From: Escherichia phage 235Ecol030PP
Sequence record: PP355091.1
Direction: 5' to 3' (one strand)
Length of the DNA stretch: 64,000 nt
The position numbers and the translations under genes are program-made. Every line of letters starts with the position of its first letter. Position 1 is the stretch's first letter. Shown here piece after piece: positions 40,840 through 63,806 of this stretch. The notes beneath the pieces were generated by a model that had not been told where the DNA came from, did no database searches, and saw nothing but the letters and a program-made list of their open reading frames with translations.

Positions 40840-41310
40840 TTAATCATGTTTCCACACCCCATCGGTATTTGACCAAAGTCGCTGATTATCTGATCCTCGC
40901 CACAGCTTTTTAGTCGGAAGATTTTTCTCATACTTCCCATCAATAATAACATCAACATATTTAAGCATTTCTAGTTGTTTAATATCTTCAAACTTATATC
41001 CTGTCCACAACCAAATGCTTTTATTTGGATAAAGATTTTTTACTGTTTGAACAATGCAATGAATAACATCTCGATTATCAGGATAGAGAGGGTCACCTCC
41101 GGTTATAGTCAATCCTTCTATATAATCATTATTCAAACATTCAATTAATTGTTCTAGTGTTTCACCAGTGAATGGAATACCATTTCTAGCATTCCATGTT
41201 GATTTATTATAACACCCTTCGCATTTATGCAAACAACCTGTAACGAAAAGAACTGTCCTGCATCCAGGGCCATTCACAAAGCAGCACGGGTATATTCTGT
41301 CATAATTCAT
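40840..41310 (-). CDS. nrdG: anaerobic RNR activating protein (radical SAM), 156 aa
   Basis: CxxxCxxC cluster (CLHKCEGCYN), size 156 aa. Confidence 0.85.
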   Translation of the reverse strand: MNYDRIYPCCFVNGPGCRTVLFVTGCLHKCEGCYNKSTWNARNGIPFTGETLEQLIECLNNDYIEGLTITGGDPLYPDNRDVIHCIVQTVKNLYPNKSIWLWTGYKFEDIKQLEMLKYVDVIIDGKYEKNLPTKKLWRGSDNQRLWSNTDGVWKHD

Positions 41311-42139
41311 TTATATATTTCCAATTATAGCCTTCAACACTTTTACGTTCGCCATTTAAACATTTTAAAATATTTCCTTTGCTAGAAATATTAAAATATT
41401 TTGCTGCGTCTGGTATATAATTAAATGTTTTTAAAAGAACACCATCTTTATATGCGCCAAATAAATTAAGAGTATATTTTTCTCGAAGACGTTGATGTTT
41501 CCTTTTCATAACCTCAGGATTTGCATACGCCAACCTCAATGAATTTCTATGTTTTTCTTTTACTTCAGGTTTTTGCATTGCTAACTTAGTTAGCCTGGAA
41601 ATTTTATTTCTAACTTCGTCAGTTTTCATTGCATTTGACAAATTTAATAAAGTTTTATTTCTAACTTCAGGTTTTTGCATTGCTAACTTAGTTAGTTCTC
41701 TATGTCTTTTTCTAAAATCGTCATCCTTCCATATATTTTTCGATAATTTTGACATAGAGCGGTGAAATAATTCCTTTTCACCGGAATACAATTTAAGAAT
41801 TTCATCCAATTCATCTGTATTAAATCTATCGGTATTCGAGTTTATCATTCTATGAAAGGCATAACACATTTTACTATTACTTGTTTTAGCTAAATAGTAA
41901 TGAGCTAACGCGTGGTCATAATATGACAAATTAACAATATTCCATTTATCTGTTTTATATTCAGGAAATATAGATTTGGGAAGCACGTGATGTGCTTCCG
42001 TTTTTCCTTTTATTTTAGGATTATTATAATTTTTTGTTATCAAATCAACATATGACAATAGTAAATCATTATTTTCTTCAAATATTAAAGATAATTTATC
42101 ATTCACAAAATCGCAAGGATAAAATCTATCATAATTCAT
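41300..42139 (-). CDS. HNH homing endonuclease (Mob-like), 279 aa, with NUMOD3 repeats
   Basis: AHHVLP...N...DHALAH HNH motif; duplicated LTKLAMQKPEV units; first 13 codons mimic the nrdG N-terminus. Confidence 0.75.
   Translation of the reverse strand: MNYDRFYPCDFVNDKLSLIFEENNDLLLSYVDLITKNYNNPKIKGKTEAHHVLPKSIFPEYKTDKWNIVNLSYYDHALAHYYLAKTSNSKMCYAFHRMINSNTDRFNTDELDEILKLYSGEKELFHRSMSKLSKNIWKDDDFRKRHRELTKLAMQKPEVRNKTLLNLSNAMKTDEVRNKISRLTKLAMQKPEVKEKHRNSLRLAYANPEVMKRKHQRLREKYTLNLFGAYKDGVLLKTFNYIPDAAKYFNISSKGNILKCLNGERKSVEGYNWKYINEL
41566..41700. repeat. direct repeat of ~27 nt within the HNH gene (NUMOD3 repeat units)
   Basis: aggtttttgcattgctaacttagttag occurs twice about 103 nt apart. Confidence 0.8.
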
Positions 42140-43441
42140 TGGTGTTTAACCCTATGCATGATTTCTTTATTTTTACCGAGATTAAATCCGCGTTCGTTCG
42201 GGTTTCCAAGATATCCGCATGTTCTTCTTATGGTGTTCATCTTTTTAGGATCAGTTTCTCCACAAATAGAACAAACAAATCCGTTTTCAGTAGGAGTCAT
42301 TTCATGGGTACTTCCACATGTAAAACATTTATCTACTGGCATATTAACACCAAAATAATCTAAATGCTGTGCAGCATAATCCCATACGGCCTCAAGACCT
42401 TTTAGGTTATTTTTCATATCAGGAAGTTCAACATAAGAAATGTGACCACCTGTCGCAATGAAATGATATGGGGCTTCGCGAGAAATCTTTTCAAACGGAG
42501 TAATATTTTCTTCTACTGAAACATGGAAACTGTTAGTGTACCAGCCTTTATCAGTAACATCTTTTACACTTCCATATTTTTCTGTATCAAGTTTACAGAA
42601 GCGATAACAAAGGTTTTCAGCAGGAGTCGAATACAAACTAAAAGCAAACCCAGTTCTTTCAGTCCACTGTTTAAGACGAGCATTCATTTTAGTTAAAATT
42701 TCTTGTCCAATATCACGACCGACAAGAATATTCAATTCATGAATACCAATGTATCCTAAAGACACTGAACTTCTGCCATTTTTAAATAACTCAATTATAT
42801 CGTCATCAGGTTTAAGACGAACCCCGAATGCACCTTCTTGGTAAAGAATAGGAGCAACAGTCGCTTTAACTCCTTTTAAGGAACTAATTCTACACATCAA
42901 TGCTTCAAAACATAAATCCATTCGTTCATTGAACAATTCAACAAATTTCTGTTCATTGAACTGTGTTCCAATATAAGAATCTAACGCAATACGAGGAAGA
43001 TTCAATGTTACAACGCCAAGATTATTACGTCCATCAAGAATTTCATTACCAGTCGAATCTTTCCATACGCTCAAGAAACTACGGCAACCCATTGGAGAAA
43101 CAGGAATAGATGAACCGGTGATAGCTTTATTGTTCTTAGCTGAAATAATATCAGGATACATTCTTTTGCTTGCACACTTTAGAGCAAGCTGCTTAATATC
43201 ATAGTTCGGATCGTCTTTGTAAAGATTAACGCCTTCTTCGACGAACATAACAAGCTTAGGGAAAATAGGAGTTATCCCATCACGACCAAGACCTTTAATA
43301 CGATTTTTCAGAATTGCTTTCTGAATCATTCGTTCAGTCCAGTCAGTTCCCGTACCAAATGTAATTGTTACAAAAGGAGTCTGTCCGTTTGAACTGAAAA
43401 GTGTATTTACTTCATCATTATATTCAGCATGAGTCGCAAAT
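42136..43441 (-). CDS. nrdD: anaerobic ribonucleotide reductase NrdD, exon 2 (boundary approximate)
   Basis: C-terminal glycyl radical motif RRTCGYLG and CxxC zinc ribbon; 5' limit set by the upstream endonuclease stop. Confidence 0.8.
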
Positions 43442-44470
43442 TCATGCTCGTTTATATGAAACAACAAAATTTGGATAGTCCATAGATATGCAACGTTCTT
43501 TTATAGTGCTAGGATGAAAATTTAGCGCTTTAGCTGCTTCTATATAAGACGTATACTTAATACCGTCAACAACCACATATTCAGGAACTTTATGAATAGT
43601 AGTCTTAATACTCAAAACAAGAGGATGAGTTTCGACTTCACTTTCAGTGCAATTTAAATATTCCGCTGCTTTTTTAAAACTTCTAAAAGTTTTATTTTTA
43701 AGCTTTATCGATACTTGTTTTTTACTTTTTCGACTATTGATATTATTTTGCACATGTTCCTTAGATCTTCCGTTTTTAGCATAATATTCAGCTACAGAAG
43801 ATTTTATATTGTTTTTATGAGATTCGGATAACACTTTACCCTTATGAGCATCTCTTAATTTTTGAATATGTTCTTCAGTATCCGGATGCTTATAAAACTT
43901 TTTACCGCCTATGGATTTATTTAAACATTTTTTGCTATAAAAATATTTACGTATGACCTCTTCTTCATGTTTTAATGCATCTTTATAACTATCAAATGTT
44001 TTTAAAATTATCCATTTAGTAGGTGTATCAGTTTTTAAGCGTTCATTTATATACTTAGATGACGTTGTGTAAGTTTTCCAGTTTGTGGGCTTGTTTTTAA
44101 TTGTTCTAAATTTTTTATAACCGATATAAATGTCGCCATTAGAAAACTTAACTAAGTATGTAAATGCGTCTTTATCTTTTATTTTAGTACAACGTCTTTT
44201 TATCCATTTCATTGTTTCACCTCGTATTCATAAGATAATCTTATTTATACAAGATGACTGCTGCATGTCGCCATGCAGATTAGACTATATCTTCATCTTT
44301 CGATGCCGGCCGTTTCGAATAGCATTAGCTTCTATTCTACACCGCTACATTCATCACGGTTAGTCGTTAGGCATTTAGTTCAAAAGAACATTTAGCACGG
44401 GATTGTCTACTAGAGAGGTTCCCCGTTTAGACCGGTTTTACATGAGCCTGAATTAAATTAACTCATACGC
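43431..44470 (-). mobile_element. group I intron in nrdD carrying a GIY-YIG endonuclease ORF (boundaries approximate)
   Basis: nrdD frame interrupted; conserved group I core strings (AAGATATAGTC S-element-like, AAACGGGGAAC) at 44213-44452. Confidence 0.75.
43442..44212 (-). CDS. intron-encoded GIY-YIG homing endonuclease (I-TevII-like), 256 aa
   Basis: GDIYIGYKK GIY-YIG motif; located inside the nrdD intron. Confidence 0.75.
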   Translation of the reverse strand: MKWIKRRCTKIKDKDAFTYLVKFSNGDIYIGYKKFRTIKNKPTNWKTYTTSSKYINERLKTDTPTKWIILKTFDSYKDALKHEEEVIRKYFYSKKCLNKSIGGKKFYKHPDTEEHIQKLRDAHKGKVLSESHKNNIKSSVAEYYAKNGRSKEHVQNNINSRKSKKQVSIKLKNKTFRSFKKAAEYLNCTESEVETHPLVLSIKTTIHKVPEYVVVDGIKYTSYIEAAKALNFHPSTIKERCISMDYPNFVVSYKRA

Positions 44471-61812: not shown

Positions 61813-62091
61813 TTATTCTTTAAATCTAATCAATTTATTCATAGACTTTGAAACTTCGGCACGAACCTCATGTAGATTTTTGAGCTGTTCAAGACGCTGC
61901 GTATAGTAAGCAATTTCATCTTCTTCGAGACAGTCCTGCGAATCTTCTTTAAGATAACGTGCATAGTCCTGGAAAGCGTTACGGACTACTTCCTGGAAGT
62001 CATCAAGACTTTGAATTTTCTTAGGAGCAACAGATACACGACGAGGGGCAGTATAATACTCATAACCAAACCCTGCGCTTAATTGAGCCAT
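61813..62091 (-). CDS. hypothetical protein (start trimmed)
   Basis: ORF. Confidence 0.4.
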
Positions 62092-62357
62092 TAGTATTTT
62101 TCCTCTGGTTGGAACACTGCACGACAAGCCCACATACTGGCTTCTTTGAGTTTCGTTTTAGCAATAGTTAACTGATCGAGGCTTTCAGCATAATTCTTCG
62201 CGAATTCACAGTCTTCACAATTATCTAGTGCTTCCCAGAATTCATCGTATAAAGCGTCAAAGATAAGTCCTAAACGAACTTCAGCGTCTTTGATAGCATT
62301 CACTTTACCGATTTTCTCTTCAGTATGTGGCTTATAACCCTTAATATCTTCAATCAT
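62091..62357 (-). CDS. hypothetical protein (start trimmed)
   Basis: ORF. Confidence 0.4.
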
Positions 62358-62571
62358 ATTTGACTTCCTCACCAGTACATAAATCATATTCAACTAAACG
62401 AATGGGTTCATGAATGCCATATCCCTGAACAGAAATTTCTGTCGTAGGATAAATTCCATCAATATCACCCATATTCCACGCTTCATTAAATTGCTGTTCG
62501 CCTGAATTACTAAACCACTCGGCGAAAGCATTTAGCACATCTTCAGAACCTTCAATAATTATCTTTGCCAT
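62350..62571 (-). CDS. hypothetical acidic protein, 73 aa
   Basis: ORF. Confidence 0.45.
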   Translation of the reverse strand: MAKIIIEGSEDVLNAFAEWFSNSGEQQFNEAWNMGDIDGIYPTTEISVQGYGIHEPIRLVEYDLCTGEEVKYD

Positions 62572-62933
62572 TACAAACTTTCGGTGAAGGTACGAGCGAT
62601 AACGTCGCGCTGCTGTTCCGGAGTCAGAGAGTTAAAGCGAACTGCATAACCGGATACACGGATGGTCAGCTGCGGATATTTTTCCGGATGCTTAACTGCA
62701 TCTTCCAGAGTTTCACGACGCAGAACGTTAACGTTCAGGTGTTGACCACCTTCAATTTTAACTGTAGGCTGTTGCTCAATTTCAATTTCACGGGCATGCA
62801 AACCATAGAAAATTTCTGGGTCTACAAAAGAGTCCTCTTTAAAGGTTTTAGAAACGATAATTCGTGCTTGAATACCATCTTCAAAATAAATAGTACCTTT
62901 GTGTGTGCCTTCAAGAATTTGATATGCTTTCAT
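62571..62933 (-). CDS. autonomous glycyl radical cofactor (GrcA/YfiD-like), 120 aa
   Basis: C-terminal half matches the PFL/GrcA glycyl radical region incl. RVSGYAV. Confidence 0.85.
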
Positions 62934-62940
62934 ATAAACC

Positions 62941-63270
62941 TCAATTAGAAAATAAATTTATCCAAGATTGTTCTTTAATTAAAAATGGCTCAGAATCATA
63001 TGCCATTAAACTCTGTGTGATTAGTCCTTTAAAAGGCCCATCAATAAATTCCATGGTAAAATATGGAATTTTATTCATTAGCCGTGCATTAGGAGCCGTG
63101 CACAAAACTCTGCATCCTTTGAATACGCCTTTTTGTAATTTGTATTGCTTAGGATAAAATTCGCTCAAAATGTTATTTTTTGCCAAAATTTCAAAATGAT
63201 TCACCAATTTATTTTTAATAGTTTTTGGTGAAAAATAAAGATATTCGAAAAGCTGAGTGTCTGTCATCAT
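62941..63270 (-). CDS. hypothetical protein, ~110 aa (start trimmed to MMTDTQ)
   Basis: ORF coupled to the upstream gene stop. Confidence 0.45.
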
Positions 63271-63806
63271 TGCATTCCGATTACGAAAAACTGTGGACGA
63301 GTAATACCACCAATGCAACATTTAATATTACAGCAGCAGTGTACAGTGTCAATATGGACACTATAAATCTTATCCATATCAGGAGATTTGACAGGCTCAT
63401 CAATTATATATAAAATTCGCGAAAGCTTTAAACCTCTGAACTTGCTTCCTTTATTACCGATAAAACTGCGCACAGAATCAGTAAATAAACGAAAACGTAT
63501 ATCATCATTAGAATAACGCGAAAATTCCTTTTTAATGTTATTTGCAGAAATTTTAGCGTAAGCTGAAGTATTAGAAAGAACAATAACTGTTCCGCCATCA
63601 TACAACCAATTAGCAGCAAAGTTAGTCACAGCAATTGATTTACCGGATTGACGCCCACCATCTAGTCGAAGTGTGCAATACTGTTTAAGTAAGTCTTCAA
63701 ATGGCGGGATATATTCGTTTTTACAAATTTCTTCTACTCTAGCATCAGAATGGTGTGTAAAAGCATTCATCAGGGATAGATAAGGACCAGTTAAAAATGT
63801 TCTCAT
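63267..63806 (-). CDS. P-loop NTPase-like protein with Cys-rich C-terminus, 179 aa
   Basis: Walker A-like DGGRQSGKS, Walker B-like ILYIIDEP. Confidence 0.55.
   Translation of the reverse strand: MRTFLTGPYLSLMNAFTHHSDARVEEICKNEYIPPFEDLLKQYCTLRLDGGRQSGKSIAVTNFAANWLYDGGTVIVLSNTSAYAKISANNIKKEFSRYSNDDIRFRLFTDSVRSFIGNKGSKFRGLKLSRILYIIDEPVKSPDMDKIYSVHIDTVHCCCNIKCCIGGITRPQFFVIGMQ

Follow-up and report, generated by a model that had tools for sequence, protein, structure and literature searches.

A grcA gene in a T4-type Escherichia phage with a glycyl-radical domain matching the host copy

Pyruvate formate-lyase (PFL) carries a glycyl radical on Gly734, the same residue at which oxygen cleaves the enzyme (PMC8683613). 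Damaged PFL can be rescued by small spare-part proteins of ~14 kDa, YfiD (GrcA) of E. coli and Y06I of phage T4 (Wagner et al. 2001, pmid 11444864, summarised in PMC8683613), which are the only ones validated to date (PMC8683613). PFL-activating enzyme (PFL-AE) installs a glycyl radical on YfiD or Y06I, and the complex with O2-cleaved PFL regains activity (PMC8683613). Residues 61-127 of YfiD adopt the fold of PFL 693-759 and bear the radical; residues 1-60, which are disordered, help YfiD to bind cleaved PFL and to be activated efficiently (about 4-fold; PMC8683613). Here we describe a gene of this kind, an ATG-to-TAA open reading frame (ORF) of 120 codons at 62571..62933 on the minus strand of a 64,000-nucleotide (nt) stretch of Escherichia phage 235Ecol030PP (PP355091.1), hereafter the window.

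We consider it very probable that the encoded protein is a spare part for PFL and that its gene is a mosaic, in which the portion coding for the radical domain was copied from the host and subsequently renewed. The T4 counterpart, vs.6, was conserved in 6 of 6 T4-like genomes examined by Nolan et al. 2006, who noted its Gly_radical domain. Our literature search, which covered the literature incompletely, found no account of a nucleotide-level mosaic in grcA. The gene itself is ordinary and has already been annotated; the moderately interesting addition is that its radical domain appears to be a host-copied tract that tracks the host genus.

Identity of the protein and its likely target

The initial annotation of this DNA had assigned the ORF to the GrcA/YfiD-type cofactors, with a host-like C-terminal stretch of ~60 residues, a divergent N-terminal half and a counterpart in T4, and the database comparisons bear this out. 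A BLASTP alignment with E. coli GrcA (127 residues) contains 74 identities in 100 positions (E=2e-52), so that identity on a real alignment is high. Residues 61-120 correspond to GrcA 68-127 and are identical at 60 of 60 positions (EGGQHLNV...TFTESL), the RVSGYAV radical loop included, and the partners PflB and PflA are expected to be alike; residues 22-60 are ~36% identical, and residues 1-21 are unaligned. The two proteins share the same plan (P68066, 6OWR), an N-terminal half of ~60 residues followed by a glycyl radical domain of 60-67 residues, but the phage protein is 7 residues shorter and is without the 22-residue start of GrcA. Residues 60-101 match Pfam PF01228 (Gly_radical) with 67 bits (cutoff 22.2; E=2.5e-18), and the best NCBIfam model is GrcA, TIGR04365, of which positions 25-126 of 126 align with protein residues 20-120. 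The best matches in a search of solved structures were the nuclear magnetic resonance structure of YfiD, 6OWR (E=9e-42), and PflB 697-759 (1CM5/1H16; E=5e-26). The loop IRVSGYAV contains Gly95, the predicted radical site, and lines up with both structures column by column.

The match to PFL itself is confined to its radical domain. Phage residues 58-120 align to PflB 697-759 in the PflB/TdcE family, a region comprising beta-strand 10, the Gly734 loop and the C-terminal helix, and only profile positions 680-744 of the 744 in TIGR01255 (formate C-acetyltransferase) are matched, at 89 bits against a cutoff of 994. A full-length PflB/TdcE identity was therefore rejected, since the ~760-residue catalytic barrel with its Cys418-Cys419 pair is absent; for the same reason the protein cannot be an enzyme on its own. 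Labels such as 'pyruvate formate-lyase' attached to the phage gene are misnomers, because only these C-terminal profile positions are matched.

The closest relative with biochemical data is T4 Vs.6, identified by exact-sequence look-up as UniProt P13316 (GRCA_BPT4, formerly Y06I). The T4 gene (AF158101.6 63557..63919) is 97.8% identical at the nucleotide level, and its product matches at 118 of 120 residues, differing only at Q54P and R73H; the two proteins fall in one 90% cluster. Both genes lie between vs.7 and vs.5 downstream of regB, in an order (regB-vs.3-vs.4-vs.5-vs.6-vs.7-vs.8) common to the window, T4 and phage G50, and both show the same mosaic with an E. coli-identical tract. The T4 tract has one difference from E. 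coli, the R73H change, and the window tract has none, whereas the host-like run of the window stops 9 nt earlier at its 3' end than that of T4 (TTC ACC vs TTT ACT). The ORF is thus, on sequence grounds, the Tequatrovirus ortholog of T4 vs.6, a small stand-alone protein of ~14 kDa whose gene and function are already known; the exact protein is public on 167 contigs as 'autonomous glycyl radical cofactor'. One member of its cluster, a 60-residue fragment (P0012), is filed under Enterococcus faecalis, which is likely contamination or mislabelling.

The initial annotation had named two enzymes whose oxygen damage the protein could repair, host PFL and the phage's own anaerobic ribonucleotide reductase (RNR), NrdD. 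Support for the first comes from the biochemistry of the T4 ortholog (PMC8683613) and from the match to PflB 697-759, and the PFL-repair mechanism can probably be carried over to the window protein given its near-identity to T4 Vs.6 (2 of 120 residues differ). Following cleavage of active PflB by O2 at the Gly734 radical, the small phage protein would dock into the damaged enzyme, host PflA (PFL-AE) would install a radical on its Gly95, and its C-terminal 60 residues would stand in for the lost radical domain, so that output of acetyl-CoA and formate could continue. The N-terminal half of the phage protein corresponds to the disordered region of YfiD. Because that half of YfiD mediates binding to and activation of cleaved PFL, affinity and regulation may differ between the two proteins. 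T4-type shut-off would end synthesis of host GrcA and PflB, and a phage copy could then keep anaerobic or microaerobic energy metabolism going. Reductases of the NrdD1 class take reducing equivalents from formate (PMC12662201), and phage GrcA may also sustain the supply of this reductant to NrdD1-type anaerobic RNRs such as that of the window.

That the protein is instead a spare radical domain for NrdD itself is very unlikely. The window does encode both NrdG (40840..41310) and the C-terminal exon of NrdD (42136..43467) with its own Gly_radical domain, T4 NrdD is likewise an O2-cleaved glycyl radical enzyme, and a role in nucleotide metabolism was speculated upon by Nolan et al. 2006. However, BLASTP of phage GrcA against the C-terminus of the window NrdD gave no significant similarity (E=1.7), and the motifs differ, NrdD having RRTCGYLG (RxCGY type) and phage GrcA IRVSGYAV. 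The radical domain is instead 100% GrcA and ~78% PflB in sequence, and spare-part rescue is experimentally backed for PFL only, with the radical installed by PFL-AE (PMC8683613). The NrdD part of the initial annotation is thus unsupported. The reductase genes are interrupted by two ORFs on the minus strand that resemble mobile elements: a 279-residue ORF with an I-HmuI/NUMOD-like domain between nrdG and nrdD (41300..42139), and a 256-residue GIY-YIG/NUMOD ORF (43442..44212) directly upstream of the 443-residue NrdD C-terminal ORF. They suggest that the anaerobic RNR region (40840-44212) has an intron or homing-endonuclease arrangement like that of T4 I-TevII.

A host-identical tract within a phage gene

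The gene divides at the nucleotide level into segments of different affinity, placed on the window as follows.

62571..62933, minus strand: coding sequence of the phage autonomous glycyl radical cofactor, 120 residues, ortholog of T4 vs.6/GrcA/Y06I (ORF, Pfam, TIGR04365, synteny)
62756..62933, minus strand: phage-type 5' part, codons 1 to ~60, coding for the N-terminal half (nucleotide identity, composition)
62587..62755, minus strand: host-identical tract, 169 nt, equal to E. coli grcA nt 200-368 (exact run)
62649..62651, minus strand: GGT codon of Gly95 in the RVSGYAV motif, predicted radical site (alignment to YfiD Gly102 and PFL Gly734)
62571..62586, minus strand: phage-type 3' end of the gene, 16 nt, with 4 synonymous differences from E. 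coli (alignment)
62939..62942, minus strand: Shine-Dalgarno sequence GAGG, 6 nt upstream of the ATG (sequence reading, as the reverse complement of cctc)

Every one of 5,426 complete E. coli genomes has a grcA that is 97.8% identical to gene nt 179-363, and none has a match to the part upstream. The identity includes an uninterrupted exact run of 169 nt, every synonymous site among them, followed by the 4 synonymous differences in the last 16 nt. This run, which codes for the structured glycyl-radical domain, starts with the third base of codon 60 and ends with the second of codon 116. In a maximum chi-square scan the breakpoint falls at gene nt 178 (chi2=118); identity to grcA is 47% on its upstream side and 97.8% on its downstream side. 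All 55 codons of the tract are those of E. coli; in the Slopekvirus control, a lineage under the same protein constraint without host-like DNA, the codon is shared at 29 of 53 positions with the same amino acid. Against this control, 55 of 55 identical codons has P ~4e-15, far beyond chance. Composition changes with identity, GC climbing from ~0.3 to 0.52 across the tract. The 5' half has phage-typical values (GC 0.34; GC at third codon positions, GC3, 0.22), and the GC3 of the tract, 0.44, is that of E. coli grcA. Megablast of the whole window against the same E. coli genomes returned only this tract, together with its own weak 80% match to pflB. The tract DNA is 100% identical to grcA and only ~80% to pflB, which identifies grcA as the donor instead of pflB. 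We rejected an RNA element as the cause of the nucleotide conservation, since an Rfam search of window 62300..63100 gave no family at E<=1.

The direction of transfer was judged on a panel of grcA genes from 80 species, compared over 165 nt of the tract. The phage sequence is 100% identical to E. coli, 98.8% to a cryptic Escherichia species, 92% to Citrobacter and less elsewhere. E. coli grcA is itself 88-93% identical to the other genera over the tract (Citrobacter 92-93%, K. pneumoniae 88%), and its divergence from them is tree-like in both halves of the gene. Since the tract has the composition of the host and E. coli grcA diverges in this tree-like manner, E. coli grcA was the donor and the phage the recipient. 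The opposite direction, or an artefact of assembly or contamination, has in its favour the bare fact of identity and nothing further, and we give it practically no credence. In the E. coli system as in that of Klebsiella, the tract has the composition of the host and not of the phage, and all 5,426 E. coli genomes contain it. Independent sequencing of 638 phage genomes, the T4 reference among them, has likewise yielded the tract, invariably in frame and bordered by phage sequence.

The rest of the gene has a different history. All T4-like genera examined carry a 120-residue homolog with a conserved phage-type N-terminus, which indicates that the gene is old in T4-like phages. It is conserved, with a 5' half of phage-like composition, in Tevenvirinae, Slopek-, Pseudoteven-, Krisch- and T5-like phages. 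Between the window and Mosigvirus, identity is 68-90% in the flanks, 82-92% in the 5' half of the gene and 98-100% in the tract; synonymous codon differences number 15 of 54 in the 5' half and 1 of 55 in the tract (Fisher p=9e-5). Over the 5' half, genes of Tequatro- and Mosigviruses are ~12% apart. Divergence returns at the borders, where 4 of the last 5 codons differ and the 25 nt directly upstream of the tract hold 5-6 differences. In control pairs (Slopek vs Pseudoteven, window vs Jiaoda and others) the synonymous sites of the two halves are equally diverged, so the 3' half does not have an intrinsically low rate of change. Among 12 Tequatro- and Mosigvirus genes, 5 have no tract difference from E. 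coli, with 5' halves that differ at up to 23 of 178 nt, and most changes in the remaining genes are private, so that the sequences radiate as a star from that of E. coli. For the last 18 nt, these 12 related phages have at least 8 synonymous haplotypes between them, with host-like and phage-like states mixed, as expected for variable conversion end-points. These comparisons indicate that the tract is younger than the gene surrounding it.

Could a single capture of the whole grcA gene, the plainest way to take the host-derived acquisition of the initial annotation, with a fast-diverging N-terminal half and a C-terminal half frozen by purifying selection, account for the same pattern? The GrcA family model does align over residues 20-120, and the C-terminal domain is near-invariant at the protein level in all hosts and phages. 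Synonymous sites, however, lie beyond protein-level selection, and here 55 of 55 codons are those of E. coli, whereas Slopekvirus differs at 24 of 53. The step in GC3 from 0.22 to 0.44 at the breakpoint contradicts capture of the gene as a whole, phage genera diverge much less in the tract than in the neighbouring 5' half (p=9e-5), and Klebsiella phages carry a Klebsiella version. We regard this alternative as highly improbable. The gene bears the marks of gene conversion, namely sharp breakpoints, synonymous identity, donor-like composition, a tract younger than its surroundings and a donor that follows the host. It is, on this evidence, a mosaic of an old, AT-rich phage 5' half and a 169-nt stretch that homologous recombination brought in from E. 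coli grcA. The host-derived acquisition proposed in the initial annotation accordingly stands for the 169-nt tract, by virtue of the exact run, but not for the whole gene, which is an old, phage-specific member of the family.

Escherichia phage vB_EcoM_Nami, also a Tequatrovirus, presents a divergent copy (L088:601-963) with 11 tract differences from E. coli; its flanks share 93-100% identity with the window. Some of the 11 differences are non-synonymous and hit positions that are invariant elsewhere, among them N66H, and I91S in the TIRVSGY loop. This copy is possibly decaying or under relaxed constraint, or may contain sequence errors.

Host matching among phage genera and its possible origin

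The donor of the tract appears to change with the host. Over the 165 nt, E. coli and K. pneumoniae grcA differ at 20 sites (the K. pneumoniae reference was taken from a chromosome filed among plasmids). Tequatro- and Mosigviruses have the E. coli state at 20 of 20 diagnostic sites, and three Klebsiella Jiaodaviruses have the K. pneumoniae state at 17-18 of 20, both amino-acid differences included. The Jiaodavirus tract is 95.8-96.4% identical to K. pneumoniae and 86-88% to E. coli; it begins at the same left boundary, codon 61, and its last ~18 nt are again phage-type. Its GC3 is 0.60, close to the 0.67 of K. pneumoniae, against 0.25 in the 5' half. In the wider collection, an identity of at least 95% to E. 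coli grcA is reached by 638 phage records, in every case confined to nt 200-384 and in none at full length, and 106 records from Klebsiella and Raoultella phages are at least 95% identical to K. pneumoniae grcA, from nt 202 to ~370. With the K. pneumoniae gene as query, E. coli phages reach ~87%. The existence of E. coli-type and K. pneumoniae-type tracts requires at least two independent host-specific conversions.

These patterns lead us to favour, with some reserve, a recurrent host-tracking conversion in which codons 61-116 are repeatedly overwritten by the grcA of the current host. Fragments of host DNA made during infection would pair with the phage gene where homology suffices, namely in its 3' half, which is ~80% identical to the host even in unconverted lineages owing to protein constraint. 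The heteroduplex would stop on the left at codon 61, where similarity falls to ~47%, and would have to be resolved before the non-homologous downstream gene, so that the final ~16 nt keep the phage version. A converted tract would offer 169 nt of perfect homology and so make further conversion easier, a self-reinforcing process by which phage and host tracts could evolve in concert and be reset after host shifts. Host matching may be adaptive, fitting the spare part to the PflB and PflA of the host, or neutral; we hold the adaptive version to be rather doubtful.

Recombination between phages must also be weighed. T-even phages recombine intensely with one another, which would favour one conversion per host species followed by spread of the tract from phage to phage; 638 of 638 E. 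coli-type records share the same left boundary, and no unconverted Tequatro- or Mosigvirus was seen. Identity between Tequatro- and Mosigviruses nevertheless ends exactly at the borders of the tract, where phage-phage exchange would normally bring flanking sequence along, and this limitation to the borders argues for more than two conversions. The E. coli sequence lies at the centre of a star of mostly private variants, some of which equal natural E. coli alleles: when five Escherichia alleles were compared, 5 of 24 phage tract variants matched them in both site and base, a hint that more than one allele acted as donor. Jiaodavirus and K. pneumoniae in any case call for at least one independent event. 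Spread from a single conversion per host is consequently improbable as a full account, and we retain recurrent conversion as the better one.

A number of points weigh against the composite account of a PFL spare part with a recurrently renewed tract. With 154.9 bits against TIGR04365, the protein falls short of the curated equivalog cutoff (170) owing to its divergent N-terminal half, though RefSeq and UniProt name the phage protein GrcA despite this. The repair function of the window protein is predicted from its T4 ortholog, a benefit of grcA to the phage in vivo is putative, and the metabolic link from PFL through formate to NrdD, drawn in part from PMC12662201, is plausible. Within the E. 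coli phage group, recurrent conversion and one conversion followed by phage-phage spread are not fully separable, the left boundary being common to all 638 E. coli-type records. Variants 192G and 219C of one contig, L096, occur together in 0 of 5,426 complete E. coli genomes (best identity 99.4%); at least one of the two is present in 1,637 of these genomes, and the combination may reflect parallel mutation or patchy repair. The genes of Krischvirus, T5-like phages, Slopek-, Pseudoteven- and Winklervirus are at most 85% identical to any sampled host, and no phage record was more than 90% identical to S. enterica grcA.

Zeidner et al. 2005 and Sullivan et al. 2006 reportedly described host-phage intragenic recombination in the photosynthesis genes psbA and psbD of cyanophages. 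That system likewise involves a metabolic gene of T4-like virulent phages, exchange of patches with the host copy, and mosaic genes with host-like composition. The grcA patch differs in that it comprises one structural domain with fixed boundaries, is near-identical to the current host allele and is reciprocal between E. coli and Klebsiella phages, and in that the phages carrying it degrade host DNA and use modified cytosine.

At the protein level, host matching in the older lineages was judged weak, given that the C-termini of host GrcA vary at ~2 positions across Enterobacterales. Slopekviruses have the Klebsiella-type motif LLDAVEH and RB43-like E. coli phages LEDAVKH, both at ~82% nucleotide identity. 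The C-terminal 60 residues of RB43-like (Pseudotevenvirus-type) contigs are identical to E. coli GrcA, and those of Klebsiella Slopekviruses are identical to K. pneumoniae GrcA at 60 of 60 positions, in each case with a nucleotide identity of only ~82-84%. Such protein identity, which turns on two variable residues, may represent old conversions decayed at synonymous sites, or convergence. A further group of metagenomic IMG/VR contigs (L112-L117, ~33-154 kb) encodes a 130-residue phage-type GrcA with a tract nearest to grcA of Haemophilus parainfluenzae, with up to 86.7% identity in L114; the true host may lie outside the panel. These contigs may be a Pasteurellaceae-phage counterpart of the host-tracking pattern. 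Another IMG/VR contig (L122, 19 kb, 90.9% identical to Yersinia grcA) was considered as a Yersinia-phage case and rejected as bacterial DNA, for it encodes a full bacterial-type GrcA.

The homolog of Klebsiella phage KPV15 (NC_055715.1, L004:1501-1862) is frameshifted and annotated as ORFs of 49 and 51 residues, and is either a pseudogene or the result of a sequencing error; the sister Jiaodaviruses Shark_ER15, Wolf_ER13 and TU02 have an intact 120-residue gene. Likely contamination or mislabelling was also encountered among the bacterial records, in the form of a 'Vagococcus sp.' assembly contig with an enterobacterial grcA and of two Klebsiella 'plasmids' that are chromosome-sized or chromosome-derived (CP125156.1 is 5.37 Mb).

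Genomic setting and meaning for T4-type phages

The DNA around grcA is that of a Tequatrovirus (T4-like) genome, with the block tk - vs - vs.1 - regB - vs.3 - vs.4 - vs.5 - [grcA] - vs.7 - vs.8. The gene belongs to a long run of minus-strand ORFs that overlap or are tightly packed, and its TAA overlaps the ATG of the downstream vs.5-like ORF (62350..62571) as TAATG. A scan for sigma-70 promoters near the gene showed no enrichment (11 found, against 7.5±2.8 in shuffled sequences); in view of this result and of the packed minus-strand ORFs, we claim no dedicated promoter for grcA. The downstream ORF has 73 residues in the window and in phage G50, and 58 as T4 vs.5. The ORF two genes downstream (62091-62393, minus strand) is T4 vs.4 by position. 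Upstream, a vs.8-like ORF (63267..63806) of 179 residues is shorter than T4 vs.8 (219 residues). Neither the vs.5-like nor the vs.8-like ORF has a Pfam match. The record of one close phage relative annotates an 'anti-CBASS protein 2' gene somewhere within the region matching window 62300-63400, so that the spare-part gene may stand next to a counter-defence gene.

For the databases, recognition of this gene as grcA corrects the labels 'pyruvate formate-lyase' and 'hypothetical protein' that phage copies have received. For the biology of the phages, the pattern suggests that virulent T4-type phages exchange sequence with the host chromosome often enough to hold a domain of ~170 nt identical to that of the host, the donor changing with the host genus. 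If recurrent conversion is the correct explanation, strictly virulent phages that break down the DNA of their hosts would here offer a clear example of gene conversion from host to phage that is still under way. The tract would then tell which bacterium a phage lineage has recently infected, E. coli for Tequatro- and Mosigviruses and K. pneumoniae for Jiaodaviruses, and so provide a natural and easily sequenced marker of recent hosts in Tevenvirinae. It could also serve as a tractable system for measuring rates of host-to-phage recombination, and as a test case for whether an auxiliary metabolic protein of a phage must match the host enzyme that it repairs.

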